Shown in pieces: positions 4,444 through 20,021 of a stretch of 64,000 nt of DNA (positions are counted from its first letter, which is position 1; each line of letters begins with the position of its first letter). The notes under the pieces are model-generated. The model did no database searches. It saw only the letters and a program-made list of their open reading frames with translations, and was not told where the DNA came from. The stretch is from Magnetospirillum sp. WYHS-4. GTDB taxonomy: Bacteria; Pseudomonadota; Alphaproteobacteria; Rhodospirillales; GLO-3. A program made the translations under genes and the position numbers. Location: positions 14,743 to 78,742 of the forward strand of contig JAMOBD010000007.1 of assembly GCA_039908345.1 (NCBI GenBank), read 5' to 3'.

Positions 4444-5771
4444 TGGGTCATCGTTCCGACCATTCGCCGGGCCGCATCGCTTTCATCAACGCCCGCCTGC
4501 TCGATCCTGCCTCGGGCCTGGACGCCAAGGGCGCCCTGCTCGTCGAAGGCGAGGCGATCGCCGATTTCGGTCCCGCCCTGTTCAAGAGTGGCGTTCCGTC
4601 CGGGATCGAGACGGTCGATTGCCGGGGCCATTGCCTGGCGCCCGGCCTGGTCGACATGCGGGTGCAACTGCGCGAGCCGGGCGAGGAGCACAAGGGCACG
4701 CTGGCTTCCGCCGGCCAGGCTGCAACGGCGGGCGGCGTCACCACCATGGTCTGCCTGCCCAACACCTCGCCGGTGATCGACGACATGTCGGTGGTCGAGT
4801 TCGTCGCCCGCCGCGCCCGCAAGCTGGGACTCACCAAGGTCTACTGCTACGGCGCGGTGACCAAGGGTCTGGCCGGCCAGGAACTGGCGGAAATGGGCAT
4901 GTTGGCCGAATCGGGTGCCGTGGCCTTCACCGACGGCACCCAGGCGGTGGGCGACGCCCAGGTCATGCGCCGGGCGCTGACCTACGCCGCCACCTTCGGC
5001 CTGCTGATCGTCCAGCATCCGGAAGAACCGAGCCTCGCCCGCGGGGGCGCCATGAACGCGGGCGAGACCGCGACCCGCCTGGGACTGCCCGGCATTCCCC
5101 GCGAAGCCGAAGTCATCATGGTGGAACGGGATATCCGCCTGGTCGAGATGACCGGCGGGCGGCTGCATTTCGCCCACGTCTCGACCGCCGGAGCCGTCGA
5201 GGCGGTGGCCGCCGCCAAGGCCCGCGGGCTCAAGGTCACCTGCGATACCGCGCCGCCCTACTTCGCCCTGAACGAAGGCGCGGTGGGCGATTACCGCACC
5301 TTCGCCAAGCTGTCGCCGCCCCTGCGTTCCGAGGCCGACCGCAAGGCCATCGTCGAGGGACTGAAGGCCGGCATCATCGACGCCATCGCCTCCGACCACG
5401 CGCCCGAGGACGAAGACGCCAAACGCCTGCCGTTCGCCCAGGCCGCTTTCGGCGGCGTCGGGCTGGAAACCCTGCTGGGCGTCTCGCTGGGGCTATATCA
5501 CCACGGCGGAATGACGCTGCTGGACGTGCTGCGGCCACTGACCTGCGCGCCGGCCGACATCCTGGGGCTGCCTGCCGGGCGGCTGACGAAGGGCGCGGCG
5601 GCGGACCTGGTGCTGTTCGATCCGGAGCGGGGCTGGCGAGTGGATTCGGACGACCTGCTCTCCAAATCCAAGAATACGCCCTTCGACGGCTATCTGGTGC
5701 AGGGCCGCGCATTGCGCACCGTTATCGACGGCCGCACCGTGTTCGACGCCGCCCACGGGCCCGAGGACTGA
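4443..5771 (+). CDS. pyrC: dihydroorotase-like amidohydrolase (PyrC / PyrC'-type; canonical HxH metal motif replaced)
   Basis: This is the last 442 aa of the 1192-aa track ORF 2193..5771. The ATG at 4443 overlaps the pyrB stop (TGATG). It shows the class I dihydroorotase layout ([20 protein letters not shown]), but the usual D-x-H-V-H reads D-M-R-V-Q. Confidence 0.85.
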
Positions 5772-5772
5772 G

Positions 5773-6381
5773 ATGGATCTTCCCGTCCTTGCCGCCGCCC
5801 TGGCGGGCGGCTATCTGCTGGGCTCGGTGCCCTTCGGCCTGGTGTTGACACGGGTTGCCGGGCTGGGCGACATCCGCGGCATCGGCTCGGGAAACATCGG
5901 CGCCACCAACGTGCTGCGCACCGGCCGCAAGGGCTTGGCGGCCGCCACCCTGCTTCTCGACGGCGGCAAGGGGGCCGCCGCCGCGCTGATCGCCCAGGCC
6001 TTGGCCGGCACGGACCCGGGACTGCTGGCCGGGCTGGCGGCGGTGATCGGGCACAACTTCCCCATCTGGCTGAATTTCAAGGGGGGAAAGGGCGTCGCCA
6101 CCACCCTGGGGGTACTGCTCGCCACCTCGGTGCCGGTCGGCCTGGCGGCCTGCCTGACCTGGTTGGGCACCGCCTTGCTGTTCAGATATTCCTCCTTGGC
6201 CGCCCTGGTGGCCCTGGCCGCCGCGCCGGTCTCCGCCTGGTTCCTGGCCGGTCCCGGCCATGCCGCCATGGCCGCCGCGCTCGCGGTGCTGGGCATCGCC
6301 CGCCACCATGCGAACATCGCCCGCCTGCTGAAGGGCGAGGAACCGAAAATCGGCCGAAAGAAAAATCATCACGCCGGATAA
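5773..6381 (+). CDS. plsY: glycerol-3-phosphate acyltransferase PlsY
   Basis: 202 aa multi-pass membrane protein with [16 protein letters not shown] and [18 protein letters not shown] motifs. Confidence 0.92.
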
Positions 6382-6881
6382 ACGAGGAAGTGCGGCCCGC
6401 CGCCCTCGCGAAAGCGTTCCAGGCCCCATGCCACGCTGGAAAACGCCAGATCCGCCCACGGAATGTCGTTCCAGTCGAACAGGCCGACCTCGCGGCTTTC
6501 CGGGCCCGCGCCGCAGTCGGGAGCCAGAAGCCGAGCGCGATAGATCAGATAGACGTGGCCGACCTGGGGAATTTCGTAGACGCCCAACAGGTCCTCGATC
6601 TCGGCCCTGGCGCGGGCTTCTTCCTCTACCTCGCGCAAGGCGCCCTGGGCGGCGCTCTCGCCGCGTTCCATGAACCCGGCCGGAAACGTCCAGTAGCCGA
6701 TTCGCGGCGCGATGGCGCGGCGGCAAAGGAGGATGCGGCCTTCCCAGGTGCAGATGGCCCCAACCACGATCTTGGGATTTCCGTATTCGATATAGCCGCA
6801 ATCGGGGCAGACCAGCCGGGTCCGCGTATCCCCTTCGGGCACGGTCTCGACGGTCGGTCCACGCGGCGACGGTTCGATCAT
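6369..6881 (-). CDS. NUDIX hydrolase with N-terminal zinc-ribbon-like motif
   Basis: Track ORF 6369..7256; the likely start is Met at 6881 ([10 protein letters not shown]). [12 protein letters not shown] is followed by the Nudix box [23 protein letters not shown]. Confidence 0.85.
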
Positions 6882-7078
6882 GCCACCACTTTGGCGGCGC
6901 GGCCCAGGGGGCGCAAGGCGAAAACGGAGGTTTCCCCTTGCGGCAAGGCTGCTATCATGGAGGCCGATTCGGTGCATGGAGGATTCGGACCCGCATGGCT
7001 GGCGGCCAACATCTGCAGCAGGTCTACGCGGACCCCACGCCTGCCGCCGATTACGGCGAGCAGACCTTTCTGGGTGGC

Positions 7079-8953
7079 ATGAGCCTTTCCGGGCGGGTTC
7101 GGCTGTTCGTCTTCCTGGGCCTGGCGGCCATGGTCGGCCTTGGGGCAGGCGCCTGGCATCTGGACCAGCGCCTGGCGCTGGTGGTGGACGAGACCGCCCG
7201 CGCCCGCGACCTGCTGGAGATTGCGGGCAAGGTCGAGCGGGGCGTCTGGCAGGCACGCGACAGCGAACGCAGCCTGCTGGCCGACGGTGCCGCCATCCAT
7301 GCCGAACGCTACGACATTCAGGTGGCCGGGGTGACCAGCGCCCTGGAGGCCCTCGCGGGCCGTCCCGACGCCCAACCGCTGGCCGATCGGCTCAAGGAAA
7401 TCGGCGAGGCCCTGGCCCGCCACGGGGTGGAATTCCGCGATGGCGCGGCGACGGCCAAGGCCGCCCCGCGTCCTGACGCCGATACCCCCAACGCGCTGGT
7501 GGAAAAGGCAGCCGTCGAGGTCGAGGCCCGGGTGGCGCGCACCGAGTTCGCCGGGCTCAGGAATCTCTGGCAGCGAGTGCGCGAACAGGAACAGGGTTTG
7601 GCTCCCGGCGCCTCGGAGGAAACTGTCGTGCGGATCGCCAAGGCCATCGACACCTTCGGCCAAGCGCTGGTCGGTGCACCGCTGGCCGACAAGGATCGGC
7701 GAGGTGTCGCCGAGGCCCTGACCGCCTATCGCCTGGCGGTCGAGGCCGCTCTCAAGGCACGTGGCGGAACGCTGCGCGGCCGCGGGACCGCCCGGTTGGA
7801 CAAGGCCTTCGGCGAGGTGGTGCAGCAGGTGGACGGCTTGGTTTCCTTCGCCGAGGAACGATCCCTGGTCGCGTCCCAGAAGGAACGCAGCCTGCGGGAA
7901 CTGGTCCGTCTGGGCGTGGCGGGCGGCGTGGTGGGTGGACTCTTGTTGCTGATCCTGTTCGGGGCCTTGATGATGCGCAGCATCGCGAACCCCGTCCGGG
8001 CCCTGGCCAACGCGGCGCCGCGATTGTTGGGCGGCGACACGACGGCTCTCATTCCGGCGCTGGGCAACCACGACGAGATCGGCGAGGTAGCCCGTACGTT
8101 GGCCAAGATGCGGGCCGACCTGGGTGAAGCGCCGCGTGTCCGGCGCGAACTGGATGCGGTCAAGGCGGACTTGGCCCGCCAGATGGAAGAGGAAGGCCGA
8201 CTGCGGCGCGAAGTCGAGGCCCTGCAGTCCCGCGAGATCCCACCGCCCGTGCCGGTGGCGGAGCCGCCGCCACCCCCGCCACCACCGCCACCGCCCGAAA
8301 TCGAGGCGATCCCGGTAGCCGTCGAGCCGGTGGCGGTATCCGAGATTCCGGCCCGTCTGGGCAAGCTCTGGTCGGGCACCATTTCCACGGTCAGCCGCGA
8401 CGTCGCCCTGGCCAGCCAGGACGTTTCCGACGCCGCCTTCGAGGCCGAGCGGATGGGAACCATGATCCGCGGCCTGACCTTCGCCACCGCCCGGCTGAAG
8501 GAGGCGGACGAGATGATTTCCACCATCGCCGAGCAGGCGAATCTGCTGGCCTTCAAGACCCGGCTGGGCGATGGCGCCCGCCCCCCCGAGGGCAACCGCA
8601 ATCTGATCGTGCTGTCTTCCGATCCCCGCCTGATCGCTTCCGGTCGGGAGGGCAAGGACGAGGACGAGCCGCCGACCGTCCGGGTCGAGGCCATCCGCGC
8701 CGCCGCCGCGCAGGCCAAGGAAGCGTTGCGCGAGGTGGGCGAGGCCGTGGTGGACATCAAGGGCGCGGCGATGGATCTGGCTGCCTCGACGTCGGAGGAG
8801 GCGCTGGCGGTCACCACGCGCCTGATGGAGCAATCCCAGTTCCTGCGCAACATGCTTGATGAACTGGTGGGCAAGATCCACAACCGCGATGATGGTTCCT
8901 TGGCCTCCGACCAGCCGCCTCTCCTGACCCCGCGGCGAACCGACGAACGCTGA
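7079..8953 (+). CDS. membrane HAMP-domain protein with degenerate MCP-signalling-like C-terminus and an 11-proline run
   Basis: Track ORF 6938..8953; the start is ambiguous (6938, 6995 or 7079). It has a TM helix ([20 protein letters not shown]), a second TM plus HAMP ([17 protein letters not shown]...[17 protein letters not shown]), a coiled coil, E-P11-E at 8264..8296, then [14 protein letters not shown], which resembles but does not match the MCP hairpin. Confidence 0.7.
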
Positions 8954-8967
8954 GAACGACGCCCCGA

Positions 8968-9717
8968 TTACAGCGTGGACAGCACCCGCCGGATCTCCCC
9001 CTCCAGCACCAGGCAGGTCAGGCGGCCGCTGCGGTAGGCGCCGGTGTCGATGCCGATTCGGTTGCGGAGGATGGCGGGTTCGGGTTCCACGGTGTGGCCA
9101 TGCACCACGACCCGCCCGAAATCCTGGGTCGACATCAGGAAAGGGCCACGTATCCAAAGCAGGTCGGCCGGCACCTGGTCGGCCAAGGTCGCGCCCGGCC
9201 GTATCCCGGCATGGACGAACAGGTAACCGCTCTCCTCATGATACAGCTTCAAGGCGTCCAGAAAGGCGCGGTGGCTGGCCGGCAGGGCGTCCCGAAGGCT
9301 TTCGCGAAGATCCGCCAGACTGGTCCGGCCGAAGAGCACCGCTGTGGCGTCGAGGCCGTAACTCTCGATCGTCGCTCGCCCCCCGTTGGCCAACCACGTT
9401 TCGCCGGCCACTCCCAGGTCGAGGAAGTCGACCAGGAATTGTTCGTGGTTTCCTCTCAGGTAGACGATGTCGAATCCCGACGGCGGGCCTTCGAGAAGAA
9501 GATCGATCACCTTCGCCGATTCCGGCCCCCGGTCCACATAATCCCCCAGAAACACCAGAACGTGCCTGAGATCGGGGGAATCGCCCGCATCGGCGGCGAT
9601 TCGGTCCAGCAACCGGCGCAACAGGTCGGCTCGTCCATGAATGTCGCCGACCGCGTAGACGCGCCGTCCCGGCGAAATCCGGGGCGGCAGGGGAGGGGCG
9701 AGTTGAGTCCCGACCAT
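8968..9717 (-). CDS. metallophosphoesterase (PP1/PrpA/ApaH-like Ser/Thr phosphatase)
   Basis: Track ORF 8968..9939; Met at 9717 (MVGTQLAPP). GDIHG, GDYVDRGP, GNHE and VHGHT motifs are present. Confidence 0.85.
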   Translation of the reverse strand: MVGTQLAPPLPPRISPGRRVYAVGDIHGRADLLRRLLDRIAADAGDSPDLRHVLVFLGDYVDRGPESAKVIDLLLEGPPSGFDIVYLRGNHEQFLVDFLDLGVAGETWLANGGRATIESYGLDATAVLFGRTSLADLRESLRDALPASHRAFLDALKLYHEESGYLFVHAGIRPGATLADQVPADLLWIRGPFLMSTQDFGRVVVHGHTVEPEPAILRNRIGIDTGAYRSGRLTCLVLEGEIRRVLSTL

Positions 9718-9772
9718 GACTGTGAATATGATGGGGGCGGGCAAAGGCGACAACCCAAATCGGAAAGTTCGA

Positions 9773-11044
9773 ATGGCCATAGCGGTTCCCGGCAGCCTGC
9801 TCGGCACGGACCCCCAGGGGGGCGAGGAGAATCTTCTGCTCGAACACCTGCGCCGCCAAGGCGACCTGCGGGCCGGCCTGTTCGCCGTGCAGATCCATCT
9901 TTCCGACCTGAAGTCGAGCAACCGCAAACCCCATTTCATCCGGGTGGCCCGTCGCGCCTTCGAGCCCCTGGAGCACTCCTACGACGCCACGCTGTTCCGC
10001 CTGTCCAACCAGGACTTGGTGTTGTCCTGCCGCGACGTTCCCGTCGATGAGGTCGATCAGGTGATGGTCAAGGTCCGCAGCCTGTTCAGCGAAGACCCGC
10101 TGGCCGGCTGCGAGGAAGGGTCGTTGGAAGACCATTTCTCCACTTGGTACGATTTGGCGCAGGAAGAGGATTTCGCCAACTTCAAGGAAGCCATCGCCGA
10201 CATCGCCGCCAAAGCCGAGGCGCTGCGCAAGGAACAAGAGCGCGCCGAAAAGGCCGCCGACAACAACCGCGGCATGACCGGGGAGCCGCTGACGCCCAAG
10301 AATCTGGCCGCCATCAACCAGGAACTCCTGGCCACCCGGCTATCGGACCTGATCCGCCAGCAGCCGGCCATGCGCATCCTGCCGCCCAACCAGGGCGAGA
10401 TCCTCTTCCGCGAATACTTCGTTTCCATGGCCGACCTGCAGGGGCGGGTGGCGCAGAACGTCAACCTGTTCAGTTCGACCTGGCTGTTCCACTACCTGAC
10501 CGAGACGGTGGACAAACGTATGCTGGTCATCATCGGGCGGCGGGATTTCTCGAAGGCCCGGGACTCGGTCAGCATCAACCTGAACATCGCCACCGTGCTG
10601 TCCCAGGAATTCAACCATTTCCACAAGACGGTTGCCGATCATGCCACCAAGGTGGTGATCGAAATCCAATTGACCGACATCTTCGCCGATCTCGGCTTGT
10701 TCCACTTCGCCCGCGAATCCCTGCAAGCGCGGGGCTACCGCGTGCTGATCGACGGCATCACGCCGCTCACCTTGCAGTTCTTCGATCCCAGCCTGCTCAA
10801 GGCCGACTACGTCAAGATCGCCTGGGGACCCGAGTTCGCCGGCGAGGCCGGCGGCGACCGCGCCGACGAAATGCGCGACTTGGTGAATCGCATCGGGCGG
10901 GATCGTATGGTGCTGGGCCGCGTCGATTCCGAGATTGCGGTGCGCTGGGGCCTGGGGCTCGGTATCCAGCGCTTCCAGGGCTATTACGTGGATACCCTGG
11001 TGGAACGCATGGTCGCCAAGGGCATCCTGGCGGGAGGAGGCTGA
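9773..11044 (+). CDS. uncharacterised protein with degenerate EAL-like C-terminal domain (paralog A)
   Basis: Track ORF 9716..11044. The Met at 9773 aligns with the start of the downstream paralog (ENLLLEHLRR vs ENLLLDYLRR). The C-terminal ~230 aa follow EAL-fold spacing with catalytic positions replaced: EIQLTD, LIDGITP (for DDFGTG), YVKIAWG (for KxD), GRVDSE (for EGVE), FQGYY. Confidence 0.7.
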   Translation: MAIAVPGSLLGTDPQGGEENLLLEHLRRQGDLRAGLFAVQIHLSDLKSSNRKPHFIRVARRAFEPLEHSYDATLFRLSNQDLVLSCRDVPVDEVDQVMVKVRSLFSEDPLAGCEEGSLEDHFSTWYDLAQEEDFANFKEAIADIAAKAEALRKEQERAEKAADNNRGMTGEPLTPKNLAAINQELLATRLSDLIRQQPAMRILPPNQGEILFREYFVSMADLQGRVAQNVNLFSSTWLFHYLTETVDKRMLVIIGRRDFSKARDSVSINLNIATVLSQEFNHFHKTVADHATKVVIEIQLTDIFADLGLFHFARESLQARGYRVLIDGITPLTLQFFDPSLLKADYVKIAWGPEFAGEAGGDRADEMRDLVNRIGRDRMVLGRVDSEIAVRWGLGLGIQRFQGYYVDTLVERMVAKGILAGGG

Positions 11045-11047
11045 GCC

Positions 11048-12358
11048 ATGGCATTGCCGCCCAATGTCCAGAGCCATCTGCCCAGCCAGGAAAATCTCCT
11101 GCTCGACTACCTGCGCCGCCTGGAGAAGCAGAAGGACGGCCGCAAGGCGGTGTTGATCCTGATTTCCGGACTCAAGCCCTTCAATCGCCGCGAACAGCAT
11201 GTGCGTGCCGCCACCTCCAGCTTCGAGCCCCTGGCGCAGGAAATGGAGGGCCAGCTCTTCTCGCTGAAGACCGCCGACCTGATTTTCATTTACAAGGAAT
11301 CGGCGCACCCGCGTGTCGAGACGGTGGTGCAGAAGATTCGGTTCCTGTTCAGCGACGATCCGTTGCTGGAAGACGACAGCTCCGAGCGGCGTTTCGTCAC
11401 TTGGTACGACGTGGCGACCCAGTTCGAGGACATTCTGCGCCTGGTCCAGTCCCTGGTCGATGTCGAGGACAAGAAGCTCGGGGACATGCGCGACCGCCGC
11501 TCCGACACCCGGGCTTCCCTGAAGGCCCGCCAGGAACGGGGCGAGCCCCTCACCCCGGCCGTGCTGGCCCGCGTCGAGCAGTCGCTGGGCAGCGCCGACC
11601 TGTCCAACCTGGTGCGCCGCCAGTTCGTTTGTGCCTTCGATGCCAAGCTGCGGCCGCAGCCCTTCTTCAGCGAGCTGTTCATTTCCATCGCCGATCTGCG
11701 GGAAACCGTGGTGCCCGGCGTCAACATGACCGCCAACCGGTGGCTGTTCCAGCACCTGACCGAGACGCTCGACCGCCGCATGCTGTCCATGCTGGGCAAA
11801 ACCGACCGCATCGCGATTACCGGCGATATCAGCTTCAATTTGAATATCGCGACCCTGCTGTCCAACGAGTTCCTGGCCTTTGACGACAACATCACGGCCG
11901 GCCGGCGCGGCGCCATGATCATCGAACTGCAACTGGTGGACATCTTCGCCGATCTCAACGCCTTCATGTTCGTGCGCGAATTCGTGCAGGACAAGGGCTA
12001 TCGCATCTGCGTCGACAGCCTGAACCACCAGACCATGGAACTGGTGGACCGGGACAAGCTGGGCGTCGATCTGGTCAAGATCGTCTGGAGCCCCGAACTG
12101 GTCGACCGGGGCGAGGAGATGCACGACCGGGTGCGGGCTTTCGTCAAGAGGATCGGCGAGAACCGGGTCATCATGTGCCGGGTCGACAGCCGCGAGGCCA
12201 TCGACTTCGGCCGCCGGGTCGGCATCGCCCTTTTCCAAGGCCGCCAAGTGGAAAACCTGATCGCCGAGGACAATCGGCGCAAGGAACTGCTGAAGCTCAA
12301 GCGCCGCATCGAACGCAGCGCCCCGGCCGGCCATCCCCCGCTGAAGAGCAAGTCGTAG
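11048..12358 (+). CDS. uncharacterised protein with degenerate EAL-like C-terminal domain (paralog B)
   Basis: 436 aa, starting 3 nt after paralog A. It has the same architecture: WLFQHLTETLDRRML, ELQLVDIFADL, CVDSLNHQT, LVKIVWSP, CRVDSRE, FQGRQ. Identity to paralog A is roughly 35-45% by eye. Confidence 0.75.
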   Translation: MALPPNVQSHLPSQENLLLDYLRRLEKQKDGRKAVLILISGLKPFNRREQHVRAATSSFEPLAQEMEGQLFSLKTADLIFIYKESAHPRVETVVQKIRFLFSDDPLLEDDSSERRFVTWYDVATQFEDILRLVQSLVDVEDKKLGDMRDRRSDTRASLKARQERGEPLTPAVLARVEQSLGSADLSNLVRRQFVCAFDAKLRPQPFFSELFISIADLRETVVPGVNMTANRWLFQHLTETLDRRMLSMLGKTDRIAITGDISFNLNIATLLSNEFLAFDDNITAGRRGAMIIELQLVDIFADLNAFMFVREFVQDKGYRICVDSLNHQTMELVDRDKLGVDLVKIVWSPELVDRGEEMHDRVRAFVKRIGENRVIMCRVDSREAIDFGRRVGIALFQGRQVENLIAEDNRRKELLKLKRRIERSAPAGHPPLKSKS

Positions 12359-13116
12359 TGACCGTCGGTTCCGCTTCCCCCGTGGTGGTCGTCGAGGCCC
12401 TGGTCAAGCGTTTCGGGCCGGTGGCGGCGGTGGACGGGATTTCCTTTTCCGTCGCCCGCGGTTCGGTCACCGCCCTGCTGGGCGGCAACGGGGCGGGCAA
12501 GACCACGACCCTGGCCATCCTGCTGGGGCTCCTGCTGCCTTCCTCCGGGACTATCGAAGTGCTGGGCCAGGATATGCTGCGCCACCGCCATCGCGTCCTC
12601 GGGCGGATGAATTTCTCCTCGCCCTACGTGGACCTGCCGCAGCGCCTGACGGTGCGGGAAAACTTGACGGTCTATGCCCATCTCTACGAAATATCCGGCG
12701 TCCGCCGGCGCATCGAAGCCCTGGCCGCCGACCTGGATATCGAAGCCTTCCTGGACCGTCCGGTGGGCAGCCTGTCGGCCGGGCAGAAGACCCGCATCGC
12801 CCTCGCCAAGGCCCTGCTCAACGAACCGGAATTGCTGTTGCTGGACGAACCCACCGCATCCTTGGACCCCGATACCGGCGACTGGGTGCGCGGCTATCTG
12901 GAGAACTGGCGGGCCCGGTCCGGCGCCACCATCCTGCTCGCCTCCCACAACATGGGCGAGGTGGAACGGCTCTGCGACCGGGTGCTGATGATGAAGGCCG
13001 GGCGCATCGTCGACGAAGGAACGTCGGCCGGCCTGGCGGCCCGCTACGGCCGCTCCAGCCTGGAAGAGGTCTTTCTCGACATCGCGAGAGGCCGGGGCGA
13101 GGGGGCAAGGCCATGA
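12358..13116 (+). CDS. ABC transporter ATP-binding protein
   Basis: In-frame part of track ORF 12175..13116. The GTG at 12358 overlaps the TAG of the upstream gene, so the start is uncertain. Walker A GGNGAGKTT, signature LSAGQKTRIALA, Walker B LLLLDEPTASLD. Confidence 0.88.
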   Translation: MTVGSASPVVVVEALVKRFGPVAAVDGISFSVARGSVTALLGGNGAGKTTTLAILLGLLLPSSGTIEVLGQDMLRHRHRVLGRMNFSSPYVDLPQRLTVRENLTVYAHLYEISGVRRRIEALAADLDIEAFLDRPVGSLSAGQKTRIALAKALLNEPELLLLDEPTASLDPDTGDWVRGYLENWRARSGATILLASHNMGEVERLCDRVLMMKAGRIVDEGTSAGLAARYGRSSLEEVFLDIARGRGEGARP

Positions 13117-13910
13117 CCTTTTCCTGGCGGCGGGTCTGGGCGGTGATGCTGCGGCATCTTTACGTGCTGCGGTCCTCGTGGCCGCGGCTGCTGGAACTGG
13201 CCTACTGGCCGGTGGTGCAGATGGTTCTCTGGGGCTTCATCACCACCTTCTTCGTCCAGCATTCCTCGTGGGTGGCGCAGGCGACCGGCGTGCTGATAAG
13301 CGCCGTGCTGCTGTGGGACGTGCTGTTCCGCGCCAACCTCGGGGTGTCGCTCACCTTCATGGAGGAGATGTGGGCCCGCAACCTGGCCCAGCTCTTCGTC
13401 AGCCCCCTCAGGCCTTCCGAGATGGTGGCGGCCCTGGCGGCCATGAGCCTTTTGCGCACGATAATCAGCATCCTGCCCGCCTCGCTGCTGGCCTTGCCGC
13501 TGTTCGACGTCTGGGTCTTCGCCCTGGGGCCGCCCTTGCTTGCCTTCTTCGCCCACCTGATGGTCATGGGCTGGGCCATCGGGCTGATGGTGTCCGCCCT
13601 GGTGCTGCGCTTCGGTCTGGGGGCGGAAAGTCTGGCCTGGGTGGCGATCTTCGCCATCGCGCCCCTGAGCGGCATCTACTATCCGGTCGCCAGCCTGCCC
13701 CAATGGCTGCAACCCTACGCCTGGGCGCTGCCGTCCACCTACGTCTTCGAGGGCATGCGCGCCGTGCTGTTCGACCAGGTCTTCCGCTGGGACCTGTTCT
13801 GGGGCGCGACGGGTTTGAATCTGGTCTACCTGGCCGCCACCGGAGCCGGCTTCCTTTACATCGTGCACGTCGCCAGGCGCCGCGGGCTATTGCTGCACCA
13901 GGGGGAATAG
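13113..13910 (+). CDS. ABC-2 type transporter permease
   Basis: 265 aa with about six hydrophobic segments. The ATG overlaps the ATPase stop (ATGA). This is the typical ABC-2 exporter partner. Confidence 0.85.
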   Translation: MTFSWRRVWAVMLRHLYVLRSSWPRLLELAYWPVVQMVLWGFITTFFVQHSSWVAQATGVLISAVLLWDVLFRANLGVSLTFMEEMWARNLAQLFVSPLRPSEMVAALAAMSLLRTIISILPASLLALPLFDVWVFALGPPLLAFFAHLMVMGWAIGLMVSALVLRFGLGAESLAWVAIFAIAPLSGIYYPVASLPQWLQPYAWALPSTYVFEGMRAVLFDQVFRWDLFWGATGLNLVYLAATGAGFLYIVHVARRRGLLLHQGE

Positions 13911-13912
13911 AG

Positions 13913-14044
13913 CTACCAAACCGGATAGATATCGCCCGGATTGGACGGCCGCTTGCGGGCGGCCCGACGGCGACGGTAGGCGATCCAGGCGCCGATGCCG
14001 AGCGCTGCCAAGGCGGCCAGTCCCAGAATCCAGTCAGTGGGCAT
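13913..14044 (-). CDS. possible 43-aa single-pass membrane micro-protein
   Basis: Not in the track (<60 aa). The ATG at 14044..14042 lies within the last 11 nt of the upstream TPR gene (ATGCCCACTGA). Sequence MPTDWILGLAALAALGIGAWIAYRRRRAARKRPSNPGDIYPVW gives one TM helix plus a basic tail. Coding status is unproven. Confidence 0.3.
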   Translation of the reverse strand: MPTDWILGLAALAALGIGAWIAYRRRRAARKRPSNPGDIYPVW

Positions 14045-16052
14045 TCTCTCCTCCGTCGATCAGGCGTCCGGCAAGGTCCTCCAGCTTCGGCCGCAGGGCT
14101 TCAAACATGATATCGTTGCCGCGCCGATTGAAATGACAGGCCGCATCGATGGACAGGGTCTCGGCGATGCCGTCGAAACAGCCGGTGAGATCGAAGAAGT
14201 CGACTCCGTTCGTCGCCAGTTCATCCGCGCGGCCCAGCATCAGGGGATAGGTCTGGGCGATGGCCCAGTATTCGGCGCAGCCGGGAATATAATAGCGTTC
14301 CATCTCCTCCTCGCTGCGCGGCTTGCCGCCGAAGTAGGGGTTGGGCTGCAGACAGTGGAGATATCGGACGCCGTCGGCGGCGCAACCGCGTCCCAGCAGA
14401 ATGGAGGCGCGGGCCCAAAGGTCGACGACTTCATCCGCCAGGGCGCGCGCCGCGCGGGGACAGGTGGAGAAGACCTGATCGTCGACAGGATCGGTGCGCG
14501 GCAAGAGGAACGGTTCGAGGGTTCCATTCCCGGCCATGACCGGGGTGGAGCCGCGCAGACGCTCCAATTCCCTTCGCGCCCGCTTCAGCCGCCAGCGATC
14601 GACAATCCCCCGGCGCTCCGCCAGGGCGGCCACCCTTGCCTGGGCCACCAGCAGCCGGCCCATGAAGGCGAGCACCTCGGGATCATCGCTGGGGGCCTGG
14701 AACTGGAGCATGAGGTTATTCATCATCCAGGATAGGGGCAACGAGACATGATGGCCGTTGCGCTGGTTGGCGCGCTTGCCCATGGCTTCGTTGAAGCCGT
14801 CGATATTGACGGCCAGGTCGAAGCGCTGCCCGAGCGCGCGGAAATAGAAATAGCTGAGCATCGCCTGAGGCTGTCCATAGCCGCCCTGGGAGAAGTTGAG
14901 AACGGTGACCGGTCGTCCCAAGGGGGACAGGATGGAAGCGACCAGGGCCCGGATTTTTTCTCGTTCGTGGGCGAAGAACTGATCGGCGACCGATCCACCG
15001 AACAGGGCGACGACGATGTCGTCGCCGGACTCGCCGTTGTAGGGGTAGTCGAACCAGGGCTTTTCCATCGCAAAGCCGTGGTTGTTCCTATAGGTCGTCC
15101 CGCGCCAGCCGGGCCTTGCGGCATAACCCAGGTAGGGATGGAAGGCGAATTCGACCTTGGCCGGCCGGGGGGGCGATCCGAAGGCATCGGAGTCCGGTGG
15201 CGCCAATCCGGATCGTCGGCGGTTCACCGCGGCGACGATCCGATCTTCGACGACCTCGCGCGGTTCGGCGCCATTCCAGACGCTTTTCGACATCCGGGTC
15301 CGAAAGGCTTCCATCCTCAGGCGGCCGGTTTCGGCTTGACGCGCCCGAACCAGGGAATCCAGAAATTCCCGGCACCGGGCCGTCAAATCCGTGGGCAGGG
15401 GATGGCTCAGAGCTTCCTCCACCCTTCGGCAGGCCTCTCCGGCATTGGATTCCCTCAAGCTCTCGGCCCAGCCCAGAAGGAATTCGCCGCTGGCGGCGAC
15501 GACGCGCGGATCGCCCTTCGTCACGACGATGGCTTGGCGGAAGACGTTCCGCAGCCTGGTCCGGTCGGCGCCGCCGGAGTTGCGGGCAAGACCCTGCAAC
15601 GTCTCTCCGTATTCTTTGAGAAGATCGGCATCGCCAGGCGACAGCAAGATGGCTTTACCCAGGTGCTTCTCCGCGTCCTCCCAGGCCTCTCGCGACCTCT
15701 CCGCCTTTCCCAAGGCGACAAGAACCCGCGGATCATTAGCCGCAAAAGCCAACGCGGCCCGCAGGTCGGCGATGGCGTCTTCGATCCGTCCCCCCGATGC
15801 CAGAAGGACCTCGGCACGGACGAGCCGGTAATCGGCGAGGCGAGGTGCAAGATCGATGGCCCGGCCCAGATCGTCCAGACATTCCGACCCCTGCCCCAGG
15901 TCCAGGTGGGCCAGGGCGCGAAGAAACCAGGCATCCGGATTTTCCGGATTTACGAGAAGGGCTTCACCGTAGGCGGCGACGGAAGCCGCGGCATCCCCCG
16001 CGCGGTGAAGCGCCATCGCACGGGTCAGGTGGTCCTGGAAGTCCGCCGCCAT
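14034..16052 (-). CDS. TPR-repeat protein with C-terminal SGNH-like (GGS / DxxH) domain
   Basis: Track ORF 14034..16106; Met at 16052 (MAADFQDHL) is preferred. The N-terminal ~200 aa are TPR-like (AYGEALLVNPENPDAWFLRALAHLDLG...). The C-terminal part has VALFGGSVADQF, NFSQGGYGQPQ and IDAACHFNRRGN, reminiscent of SGNH blocks I, II and V. Confidence 0.7.
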   Translation of the reverse strand: MAADFQDHLTRAMALHRAGDAAASVAAYGEALLVNPENPDAWFLRALAHLDLGQGSECLDDLGRAIDLAPRLADYRLVRAEVLLASGGRIEDAIADLRAALAFAANDPRVLVALGKAERSREAWEDAEKHLGKAILLSPGDADLLKEYGETLQGLARNSGGADRTRLRNVFRQAIVVTKGDPRVVAASGEFLLGWAESLRESNAGEACRRVEEALSHPLPTDLTARCREFLDSLVRARQAETGRLRMEAFRTRMSKSVWNGAEPREVVEDRIVAAVNRRRSGLAPPDSDAFGSPPRPAKVEFAFHPYLGYAARPGWRGTTYRNNHGFAMEKPWFDYPYNGESGDDIVVALFGGSVADQFFAHEREKIRALVASILSPLGRPVTVLNFSQGGYGQPQAMLSYFYFRALGQRFDLAVNIDGFNEAMGKRANQRNGHHVSLPLSWMMNNLMLQFQAPSDDPEVLAFMGRLLVAQARVAALAERRGIVDRWRLKRARRELERLRGSTPVMAGNGTLEPFLLPRTDPVDDQVFSTCPRAARALADEVVDLWARASILLGRGCAADGVRYLHCLQPNPYFGGKPRSEEEMERYYIPGCAEYWAIAQTYPLMLGRADELATNGVDFFDLTGCFDGIAETLSIDAACHFNRRGNDIMFEALRPKLEDLAGRLIDGGENAH

Positions 16053-16077
16053 TCCCCTCTCCGCGCCGCCGCGCCTT

Positions 16078-16347
16078 TCAGCGCTTTTCCAGTACCATTG
16101 GGGCATCGGCGGCGATCGTGCCGTCGTTGACGAACCAAACCTTGATCGGCGCCCCCAGGTTGGCCATCGCCGCCTTCAGGGAGGGCGCCAAACCCATGCT
16201 CGGCTTCGCGGTTTCGGCCAGCAGGGTCGCGGTGCCGTCCGTATCGACCACCAACTGGGCGCGCGCCACTTGCGGATAGCCGGCCAGCAGATCCCGGATC
16301 TGGTTCTCGGAGATGGCGACGTCGCCCACTTTGACTTCCGCGGTCAT
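16078..16347 (-). CDS. hypothetical 89-aa protein
   Basis: MTAEVKVGDVAISENQIRDLLAGYPQVARAQLVVDTDGTATLLAE... By eye it resembles the small C-terminal lid subdomain of adenylate-forming (PaaK/ANL) enzymes. It lies directly upstream of the TPR gene on the same strand. Confidence 0.45.
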   Translation of the reverse strand: MTAEVKVGDVAISENQIRDLLAGYPQVARAQLVVDTDGTATLLAETAKPSMGLAPSLKAAMANLGAPIKVWFVNDGTIAADAPMVLEKR

Positions 16348-16554
16348 GGCTTTTCCTCCTCAAGTCGAGCCGTGTCAGGGGAGCCATGGGTAGCCGACCG
16401 GAGCCGCGCGGTCAACGGCCGCTCCATTCCCCTTGCGTTTTCGTGGAGAACCCACAAGATGTCCCCCTGGGGACTGGACATCCGCCGGGAAGTGTGGTGC
16501 TGTTCGGCCCCGTGAGGGTCCCACCCCAAACCTACCCATTCGAGGAGGAAGCCC

Positions 16555-19221
<2,667 letters not shown>

Positions 19222-19309
19222 CCCTTCCGGTTCGCCCGCCCGCACAGGCCTGTTTGTCTCCGGCGGGCGGCTGGAGTAGAATGGGATCGGCCATCCAGGA
19301 GAAGCCGCC

Positions 19310-19573
19310 ATGGCACAAGTAACCATCGAGATTCCTGCCGAGGAACTGCCCGCCAGGGTGCTGCGGCGCCTGGGTGTATCGTCCCGGGGTGTCGTGCGCC
19401 TATCGGCCGATGTCAATCCGGCGGAGGACCCGCCCCTCAGCGACGATATGGACCTTCGCGATTTCGCCCGCGTGATGGCGGCGAGGATGGAGGCGCGGGG
19501 GCTCGCTGCCGACAAGTTGGCAGGTATCCTCGACATGACCGGGGAAGAGCGCAAGAACATCCTCGAAGCTTGA
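19310..19573 (+). CDS. putative antitoxin of the downstream PIN toxin
   Basis: 87 aa, ending 7 nt before the PIN gene. There is no recognisable catalytic motif; the call is based on position and size. Confidence 0.55.
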   Translation: MAQVTIEIPAEELPARVLRRLGVSSRGVVRLSADVNPAEDPPLSDDMDLRDFARVMAARMEARGLAADKLAGILDMTGEERKNILEA

Positions 19574-19580
19574 CGACGGC

Positions 19581-20021
19581 ATGCAGCACCGGCCGCGCCT
19601 TGTCATCGATACTAACGTCTGGATAGGCCTGATCGTCTGGCCATCGCCGCGGCTGGCGGCGGTTCTGGACTTGGCAGTTCGAGAGTTCGAAATGATCGCC
19701 TCCGAAGCGACCTTCAGGGAACTTTCCGAAACCCTGACCGGGACCAGGTTTGGGGAATTCCTCTCCTTGCGCGAACGCCAACTCTCCTTGGAGATGATAG
19801 CCAAGCATCTGACCTTTCTGTCGGTGACCGCGACCGTGACCGACTGCCGCGACCCGCGCGACAACAAGTTCCTCGACCTCGCAGTGGATAGAAGGGCCCA
19901 GGCGATCGTCACCGGAGACGGGGATCTTCTCGCCTTGCATCCTTGGCGAGGCATCGCCATCCTGCCCCCCCGGCAGTTTGTCGATGCCTGCAGCCAGGGG
20001 CAACCGGAAGCGCCGCCATGA
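19581..20021 (+). CDS. PIN-domain toxin (putative ribonuclease)
   Basis: LVIDTNVWIGL (first acidic residue), SEATFRELSE, and CRDPRDNKFLDLAVDRRAQAIVTGDGDLL (the D-x-K...TGD block typical of the TIGR00305-like PIN family, as I recall it). Confidence 0.8.
   Translation: MQHRPRLVIDTNVWIGLIVWPSPRLAAVLDLAVREFEMIASEATFRELSETLTGTRFGEFLSLRERQLSLEMIAKHLTFLSVTATVTDCRDPRDNKFLDLAVDRRAQAIVTGDGDLLALHPWRGIAILPPRQFVDACSQGQPEAPP

Follow-up and report, generated by a model that had tools for sequence, protein, structure and literature searches.

A Pair of Probable Degenerate GGDEF-EAL Proteins

Proteins that carry a GGDEF-like and an EAL-like domain in tandem, both degenerate, form a recognized class in which the job is known for only a handful of members (LapD, FimX, CsrD). 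The present analysis concerns two adjacent genes that probably belong to this class, here called paralog A and paralog B, in a 64,000-nucleotide (nt) stretch of the genome of the alphaproteobacterium Magnetospirillum sp. WYHS-4 (contig JAMOBD010000007.1, positions 14,743 to 78,742; hereafter the window). Paralog A lies at 9773..11044 on the forward strand and encodes 423 residues from the ATG at 9773, and B follows at 11048..12358 on the same strand, encodes 436 residues and has the same architecture. The family to which they belong is large, conserved and unstudied; it constitutes a well-defined new variant among the known degenerate GGDEF-EAL proteins rather than a demonstration of a new principle. 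Literature searches found no description of it; at 100% identity, A matches 'hypothetical protein H7841_03810 [Magnetospirillum sp. WYHS-4]' and B matches the neighbor of that protein.

LapD and FimX resemble A and B in combining tandem GGDEF-like and EAL-like domains in which both motifs are degenerate and catalysis is not expected, and they are among the best matches to a predicted structure of A (Vibrio cholerae LapD S-helix-GGDEF-EAL, E=9e-12; FimX EAL domain, template modeling (TM) score on the target 0.60-0.66), with Pseudomonas fluorescens LapD also among the matches. LapD, however, carries transmembrane, periplasmic and HAMP modules and FimX carries REC and PAS domains, none of which occurs in A or B, and the GGDEF-like domain of A and B is far smaller (about 95 residues) and undetectable by sequence. 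The ligands of the first metal are largely lost in LapD and FimX, whereas A and B keep theirs, and the conserved tandem-paralog arrangement is a feature of A and B and not of LapD or FimX.

Other described proteins are related more remotely. CsrD (Escherichia coli YhdA), YdiV/RflP and BluF carry degenerate EAL domains (CsrD also a degenerate GGDEF domain), are regulatory rather than enzymatic and lack the catalytic base, but share no sequence relationship with A and B beyond the fold; A and B keep a near-complete first-metal pocket, and CsrD is membrane-anchored whereas A and B are soluble. YkuI of Bacillus subtilis still has the canonical residues for catalysis and recognition, plus a C-terminal PAS-like domain. 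It binds cyclic di-GMP (c-di-GMP), is inactive in vitro and matches A in fold (2bas/2w27, E about 3e-8); its single metal (PMC3527489) corresponds to the one-metal pocket proposed for A and B. Unlike YkuI, A and B have lost two of the seven catalytic and three of the four recognition residues, and they have an N-terminal GGDEF-like domain instead. The best overall matches, extending over both domains, are the active GGDEF-EAL phosphodiesterases MorA, RbdA/PA0861, DosP and PA0575, which have intact EAL catalytic residues together with sensor domains and are only 12-15% identical to A.

Domain Architecture

The C-terminal halves of A and B had been proposed, from the sequence alone, to be EAL-like, and profile and structural comparisons have both recovered this fold. 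The Pfam EAL model (PF00563, gathering score 31.3 bits) matches A with 25.7 bits (E=8.6e-6) and B with 20.4 bits (E=3.7e-4), under the gathering score in both cases; in A the match aligns model positions 26-233 with residues 208-406. Across a wide family alignment of 39 widely spaced members with a mean column identity of 35%, the model matches 33 at E<=0.01, the best of them at 8.1e-13, and it scores certain relatives above the gathering score (P0241 with 52 bits and P0385 with 32.7 bits; protein and locus numbers are our own). A search of all chains of the PDB with the A sequence and with a profile of 42 sequences gave no EAL or GGDEF match even at E<=10, so that the kinship to EAL domains is visible only through the Pfam hidden Markov model and through structure.

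AlphaFold2, given 42 homologs, produced a confident model of A, with a predicted local distance difference test score (pLDDT) of 86, and Foldseek aligned this model with about 100 EAL structures at E<=1e-3. The top matches were GGDEF-EAL tandems (MorA at 4.5e-13, RbdA/PA0861, LapD, DosP and PA0575; E=1e-13 to 1e-10), with alignments of 430-480 columns that cover both domains; isolated EAL domains came next (FimX, MorA, YkuI, YahA, BifA), with TM scores of 0.53-0.66 on the target, and of 0.56-0.66 for FimX, MorA, YkuI and YahA. The EAL-like halves, sub-threshold by Pfam, are thus clear by predicted structure, and on the model this part of the architecture is secure. The predicted TIM-barrel domain occupies residues 175-415 of A (10295..11017, forward strand) and about residues 190-405 of B (11615..12262, forward strand).

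The first 200 residues or so, shared by the two proteins, had been described as a domain of unknown kind. They do lack any Pfam match, but a small palm-type domain with the order beta-alpha-beta-beta-alpha-beta is predicted at residues 35-127 of A (9875..10153, forward strand). A separate model of residues 1-145 (pLDDT 81) folds as a small palm or ferredoxin-like domain whose best Foldseek matches are GGDEF domains, albeit weak ones (TM 0.39-0.45; DgcR, E=4.5e-3 and TM about 0.4) with other ferredoxin-like folds close behind. The Pfam GGDEF model (PF00990) gave no match in A, B or any of the 39 members, and a comparison with E. coli GGDEF domains by hhalign was not significant (probability 0.8%); this non-significant alignment places RLSNQDL of A over RYGGDEF. 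The GG(D/E)EF motif is absent from A, where S-N-Q-D-L is aligned with it, as is an RxxD motif, residues 69-72 reading SYDA. The domain is followed by a long, charged and poorly conserved helix at residues 131-166 (10163..10270, forward strand), as read from the secondary structure of the model and the alignment, and is preceded by an N-terminal helix of about 30 residues; no sensor, output or other additional Pfam domain was found in A or B. The N-terminal region is therefore probably a reduced GGDEF-like domain without the motifs, joined to a long helix, and it is this probable degenerate GGDEF domain that places A and B among the doubly degenerate GGDEF-EAL proteins.

The EAL-Like Pocket

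Active EAL domains depend on seven catalytic positions (E175, N233, E265, E268, D295, K316, and E352 in RocR numbering) and recognize c-di-GMP through four others (Q161, R179, D296, and D318) (PMC2952852). These were mapped onto A with E. coli PdeL, PdeH and DosP as canonical references, and the register obtained with hhalign (E=6e-4, probability 28%) agrees with that of an independent MAFFT L-INS-i alignment. Five of the seven catalytic positions are retained. All four ligands of the first metal (E214, N269, E297, and D327) are present in A, as are K348, Q197 and the QG motif Q402-G403, and D385 stands at the second Glu position of EGVE. The losses comprise S218 at the Arg of EALxR, L300 at the second Glu of ELTE (E268 in RocR), G328 at the second Asp of DDFGTG, A350 at the Asp of KxD and G382 at the general-base Glu (E352 in RocR), and B shows the same pattern.

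The sequence-only reading had held that the metal and general-base residues were substituted; this is correct for the half of the site that comprises the second metal and the base, while the first-metal half is intact and K348 and Q402 are kept. The motifs that it quoted (IDGITP/VDSLNH, GRVDSE/CRVDSR, KIAW/KIVW, and ENLLL) are all present, except that B reads FVTWYDVA, making the N-terminal block F[SV]TWYD[LV]A. A recent scheme takes loss of the E352 equivalent alone as predicting inactivity (PMC12900916). By published criteria, the loss of the general base and of the second-metal Asp implies that A and B are not canonical c-di-GMP phosphodiesterases; with two of the seven catalytic positions gone, the earlier suggestion that the domains are catalytically dead is supported, on sequence grounds, as far as the canonical reaction is concerned.

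What remains of the pocket is under strong purifying selection in both paralogs and throughout the family. Among the 39 members the pocket Asn, Glu, Lys and Gln are invariant and the equivalents of Q197, E214 and D327 are at least 90% conserved, so that the invariant or nearly invariant columns correspond to Q161, E175, N233, E265, D295, K316 and Q372 of RocR. Two further residues are peculiar to the family: W351, a new Trp in the motif KIxW that is invariant or at least 90% conserved among the 39, and R383, an Arg replacing the Gly of EGVE that is the consensus among the 39 and near-invariant in closer sets. The same set of pocket residues is kept in the A and the B clade. Because canonical positions are near-invariant in a family that is otherwise very divergent, the pocket appears not to be decaying and to be in use for some function, and the pattern of degeneration, being specific and conserved rather than random, points to a conserved role for it.

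Pairing, Evolution and Distribution

A and B are 39% identical over 410 residues (BLASTP, E=1e-88), which puts the paralogy claimed earlier far beyond chance. When 1.84 billion representatives were searched with a profile, E<=1e-3 yielded 1774 clusters at 50% identity and the stricter E<=1e-30 yielded 736; nearly all of their members are full-length at about 400-430 residues. Named members are all alphaproteobacterial and labeled "hypothetical" or, generically, "EAL domain-containing"; cluster look-ups for named or cultured homologs returned only "hypothetical" proteins of metagenome-assembled genomes (MAGs) and Oceanibacterium hippocampi.

Two samples of loci were compared, a close set of 80 loci from GTDB genomes, in which counts are limited to loci with room on the contig, and a diverse set of 80 metagenomic loci, of which 52 were assessable for copy number. 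In the two-copy clade, adjacency of A and B is obligatory: B follows A in 74 of 74 loci of the close set, the gap usually falling between -4 and +60 nt. In each of these 74 loci B is the more conserved copy (median identity 59%, versus 49% for A). Most distant representatives of the family are B-like, as are single-copy genes such as those of Oceanibacterium hippocampi and several MAGs, and two copies were found in only 11 of the 52 assessable diverse loci. On the strength of these observations B is the slower-evolving, ancestral type and A a faster-evolving duplicate fixed in one Rhodospirillales-centered clade.

At locus L093 (4406-6544) a 712-residue open reading frame (ORF; P0241) carries a complete protein of the A type fused to only the EAL-like half of one of the B type, with two Pfam EAL stretches. 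The fusion lies on a single contig and could be an assembly or frameshift artefact; as a sign of contact between A and B it is weak. In another locus (L090:6289-7974), a single-copy family gene has its stop overlapped by the start of a 561-residue ORF without a Pfam match; this ORF may encode a further partner or a paralog that has diverged very far. A distant relative, 27% identical to B across 89% of its length and without a Pfam match, is encoded on plasmid/chromid p1 of Azospirillum brasilense Sp7 (NZ_CP012915.1; L174:5881-7170), between the genes for RNase D (rnd) and polyphosphate kinase (ppk).

Gene Organization and Genomic Neighborhood

In the window, A and B are the first two of four tightly packed genes, an arrangement that was reported earlier and is borne out by the ORFs and by direct reading of the junctions. 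For A, a start at an ATG upstream (9716) is possible, but the start at 9773 is favored by the N-termini of homologs and by a promoter-like site, TTGAGT-18-TATGAT, at 9703..9732 on the forward strand, about 40 nt 5' of the start codon; this is the sole match in 5.4 kb, with 0.4 expected, and is weak evidence for a promoter. The stop of A (TGA, 11042-11044) is separated from the ATG of B at 11048 by the 3 nt gcc, and GGAGG lies just 5' of that ATG.

The two genes that follow encode an ATP-binding cassette (ABC) transporter. The ATPase gene (12358..13116, forward strand) encodes a DrrA/NodI-like protein (Pfam ABC_tran, 112.2 bits against a cut-off of 25 bits) whose best NCBIfam match, drrA, is below cut-off, and the ABC-2 type permease gene (13113..13910, forward strand) scores 44.4 bits with Pfam ABC2_membrane (cut-off 26.9 bits). 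As an adjacent pair, with both products above Pfam thresholds, they qualify as an ABC-2 type exporter, while none of the specific NCBIfam models (drrA, nodI, ccmA and others) reaches its cut-off. The overlap that had been described between the stop of B (TAG, 12356-12358) and a GTG (12358-12360) exists as 1 nt in TAGTG, and a purine-rich AAGAG can be read 9 nt before the GTG, but the start itself is uncertain, since in-frame GTGs also occur at 12382 and 12385 and conservation among orthologs begins at about residue 14-16. That the ATPase gene overlaps the permease gene at 13113 was evident on direct reading, the stop and start sharing ATGA at 13113-13116. An overlapping two-gene arrangement is typical of DrrAB/NodIJ-type exporters; the ortholog group found here differs from these in being below all specific DrrA/NodI NCBIfam cut-offs and in its unusually high conservation across Alphaproteobacteria (62-89%).

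The commonest partner of the family, absent from the sequence-only reading, is encoded divergently from A at 8968..9717 on the reverse strand. It is a PPP-family metallophosphoesterase (lambda-phosphatase/ApaH/PrpA-like; Pfam Metallophos, E=1.1e-14, 55.7 bits against a cut-off of 21.5 bits) with the motifs GDIHG, GDYVDRG and GNHE in its translation and only sub-threshold NCBIfam matches (Pnkp phosphatase, PrpA/B, ApaH). Its ORF is open to 9939, 74 codons beyond Met75 at 9717, and at this length would run into the start of A; the extension is unlikely to be genuine, because orthologs have 249-270 residues, and these align from residue ~84-88. From Met75 the intergenic gap to A is 55 nt. The phosphatase gene is upstream of A in 48 of 71 close loci and beside the family gene in 26 of 52 diverse loci, and it also accompanies the family in unrelated genomic contexts (L088, L091, L093, and L094-098).

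Orthologs of the ATPase and permease follow B in 17 of 64 close loci and are absent from the other 47; among diverse loci, an orthologous ATPase gene is adjacent to the family gene in 17 of 61 and within 5 kb in 17 of 37. The ATPases are 63-78% identical across 20 close loci and 62-89% across the diverse loci, even beside family proteins of only 33-40% identity, and the permeases 60-81% across 19 close loci, making the transporter far more conserved than A and B (62-89% where the family protein is only 33-45% identical). In one clade (L091:4080-7047 and L094-L098, e.g., L098:4036-6986), a reverse-strand phosphatase gene is followed by a single family gene and then by an ATPase gene; these ATPases are 85-89% identical among themselves, and no ABC-2 permease was detected after them in L091 or L094-098, despite 4 kb of room in L098. 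The ATPase thus seems the tighter neighbor of the two. Within the close set the transporter occurs only alongside the phosphatase (13/13; Fisher p=0.002, kinship ignored).

Downstream on the other strand, 11 of 37 diverse loci have a redox two-component gene pair, ActR/ActS (RegA/RegB), recognized by NCBIfam at 283 and 511 bits, above cut-off. The pair often intervenes between the family gene and the transporter, an arrangement seen in L086 (8045-10004) and also in L099, L100, L108, L111, L118, L123, L128 and L145, with Oceanibacterium hippocampi represented. In the window no ActR/ActS pair is found near A and B. Genes for heptose biosynthesis (hldE, gmhA and an epimerase) and a SYLF/Ysc84 lipoprotein are also part of the region in many loci, and genes for late steps of cobalamin synthesis, CobS-CobC-CobU-CobW-CobN (with CobC as a CobC-like phosphatase), directly follow B in most close loci (L001-L080, e.g., L033, L039, and L067, from Rhodospirillales MAGs), with the transporter, where present in this set, between B and CobS.

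A link to cobalamin synthesis was considered and rejected, as the cob genes are absent from the window and from the diverse metagenomic set, and is judged to be lineage synteny. An anti-phage defense role was likewise rejected, since PADLOC matched none of A, B, the permease and the phosphatase and gave only generic ATPase matches for the ATPase. At Rfam gathering scores, no riboswitch or other RNA, including those for c-di-GMP and cobalamin, was found in window positions 5000-20000 or in 15 related loci, and no cobalamin riboswitch in the two CobS-type loci scanned (L001 and L011). A motif scan of the window (1-64000) and the flanks of L001-L080 (~1 Mb) turned up neither a canonical GGDEF/GGEEF motif nor the combination of DDFG and EGVE in any ORF, a result that is uninformative on whole genomes. 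Two larger genes flank the region in the window. One, at 6938..8953 on the forward strand, encodes a 671-residue protein that has a HAMP domain and 12 prolines in a row, along with no more than a trace of the methyl-accepting chemotaxis protein signaling domain (E=0.18), and looks like an atypical or truncated chemoreceptor-like protein; the other, at 14034..16106 on the reverse strand and convergent with the permease gene, encodes 690 residues with N-terminal tetratricopeptide repeats and a C-terminal region of about 500 residues without a family match.

Proposed Function and Alternatives

The reading that we favor, with a probability of roughly 40%, is that A and B are non-catalytic signaling subunits and that the one-metal pocket of their heteromer binds a phosphate-bearing ligand and relays its presence to partners. 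On this reading the pair would act as a small-molecule sensor. A and B would heterodimerize by contact between their EAL-like domains, a common mode for EAL domains; the one-metal pocket that is preserved would bind a small phosphate-bearing ligand without cleaving it; and its occupancy would be passed on to partner proteins, for which gene neighborhood suggests the divergent PPP-type phosphatase and, in this genome, also the presumably co-transcribed ABC ATPase/ABC-2 exporter. Given the EAL fold, c-di-GMP and its linear product pGpG are the prior candidates for the ligand; with three of the four recognition residues lost, including the FimX-type Arg, either the mode of binding or the ligand itself would have to be non-canonical.

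Several observations weigh against such a role. Only one of the four c-di-GMP recognition positions is retained (Q161, as Q197), R179 being replaced by S218, D296 by G328 (Ser in B) and D318 by A350 (Val in B), and FimX binds c-di-GMP through Arg479 of its EVLxR motif (PMC3527489), where A and B have Ser. A comparative study considered c-di-GMP binding unlikely for degenerate EAL-only proteins (PMC2952852). The positions of Q197 and E214 follow from the multiple alignment, the Pfam match range and the predicted order of strands, without a significant profile match. An A-B heterodimer is suggested by adjacency and a single fusion, and it would not be intrinsic to the family, given that many relatives are single-copy (41 of the 52 assessable diverse loci). 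Finally, with heptose, cobalamin, actR/actS and SYLF genes alongside, the pattern of neighbors may in part be old inherited synteny.

Taken to its full extent, this last point gives an explanation of its own, in which A and B, together with the phosphatase, transporter, ActR/ActS and heptose genes, would be housekeeping neighbors that share an old alphaproteobacterial chromosomal region without a functional connection. The lipopolysaccharide-heptose, cobalamin and SYLF lipoprotein genes that share the neighborhood in many loci are consistent with it, and no regulatory RNA or shared motif was found. It is nevertheless rather unlikely, as a core of phosphatase, family gene and ATPase recurs amid entirely different flanks (L088, L091, and L094-098) and the overlap of stop with start codons in the window speaks for co-expression; it also bears on the partners only and not on the nature of A and B.

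A and B may instead be ligand-independent regulators of the YdiV/RflP, BluF or CsrD kind that act on proteins or RNA, with both folds serving only as interaction surfaces, the pair sequestering or targeting another macromolecule, for example a transcription factor or one of the neighboring gene products (phosphatase or ABC ATPase). The canonical pocket positions rank with the best-conserved columns in a family that is very divergent overall, which would be unexpected if the pocket were unused, and YdiV-type proteins have lost most of these residues. Neither A nor B has a sensor or output domain, which fits this explanation; so does their status as class-III-type degenerate EAL proteins, with the catalytic base gone and three of the four residues that recognize c-di-GMP lost, and CsrD, doubly degenerate in its GGDEF and EAL domains, provides a precedent with a role independent of c-di-GMP (criteria, and CsrD as cited, in PMC2952852). 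On balance we regard a pure scaffold as unlikely.

A further alternative is a duplicated c-di-GMP receptor pair dedicated to gating the co-transcribed ABC-2 exporter, as the sequence-only reading proposed. The tight packing of the four genes favors it, as do the existence of degenerate EAL receptors (FimX, LapD), the recurrence of the orthologous transporter beside family members in many genomes and the restriction of the transporter, in the close set, to loci with the phosphatase. Four-gene synteny does recur in other genomes and the exporter link stands to that extent, but it is not obligatory: the transporter is missing from most close loci, where cobalamin genes directly follow B, actR/actS on the other strand often intervene and one clade has the ATPase without the permease. 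The exporter is a frequent but facultative neighbor and not a defining output, and the notion that the pair is built around it fails, because A and B are universally adjacent in the two-copy clade with or without it and the commonest partner is the phosphatase. With the canonical c-di-GMP contacts mostly lost as well, dedicated gating of the exporter is very doubtful.

A neofunctionalized one-metal TIM-barrel hydrolase of some other phosphodiester or phosphoester, with R383, D385 and W351 replacing the second metal and base, would account for the full first-metal site and Lys kept across >700 deep clusters, for new conserved polar residues at lost catalytic positions and for another phosphoesterase next door, but is improbable, as loss of the E352 equivalent is taken as inactivating (see above), two paralogs with the same site and a degenerate regulatory domain fit a sensor better, and we know of no EAL-fold enzyme without that residue.

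Implications

The sensor reading can be extended to a widespread alphaproteobacterial receptor with a new metal-dependent mode of binding, formed by an A/B heteromer, or a homomer where the gene is single-copy, with c-di-GMP, pGpG or another nucleotide as ligand, and coupled to the PPP-type phosphatase and to the ATPase of the highly conserved ABC-2 envelope exporter in a neighborhood shared with the RegB/RegA redox system; in this complete form it is a long shot. If nucleotide binding is true, the family would represent a new receptor mode in Alphaproteobacteria, and its ordered neighbors (PPP phosphatase, ABC ATPase/ABC-2 permease, and ActR/ActS) would give experimental handles, with the distant relative in Azospirillum, a cultured model genus, as a possible genetic entry point. 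If A and B bind no nucleotide, the family would be a further example of the reuse of EAL folds as scaffolds.

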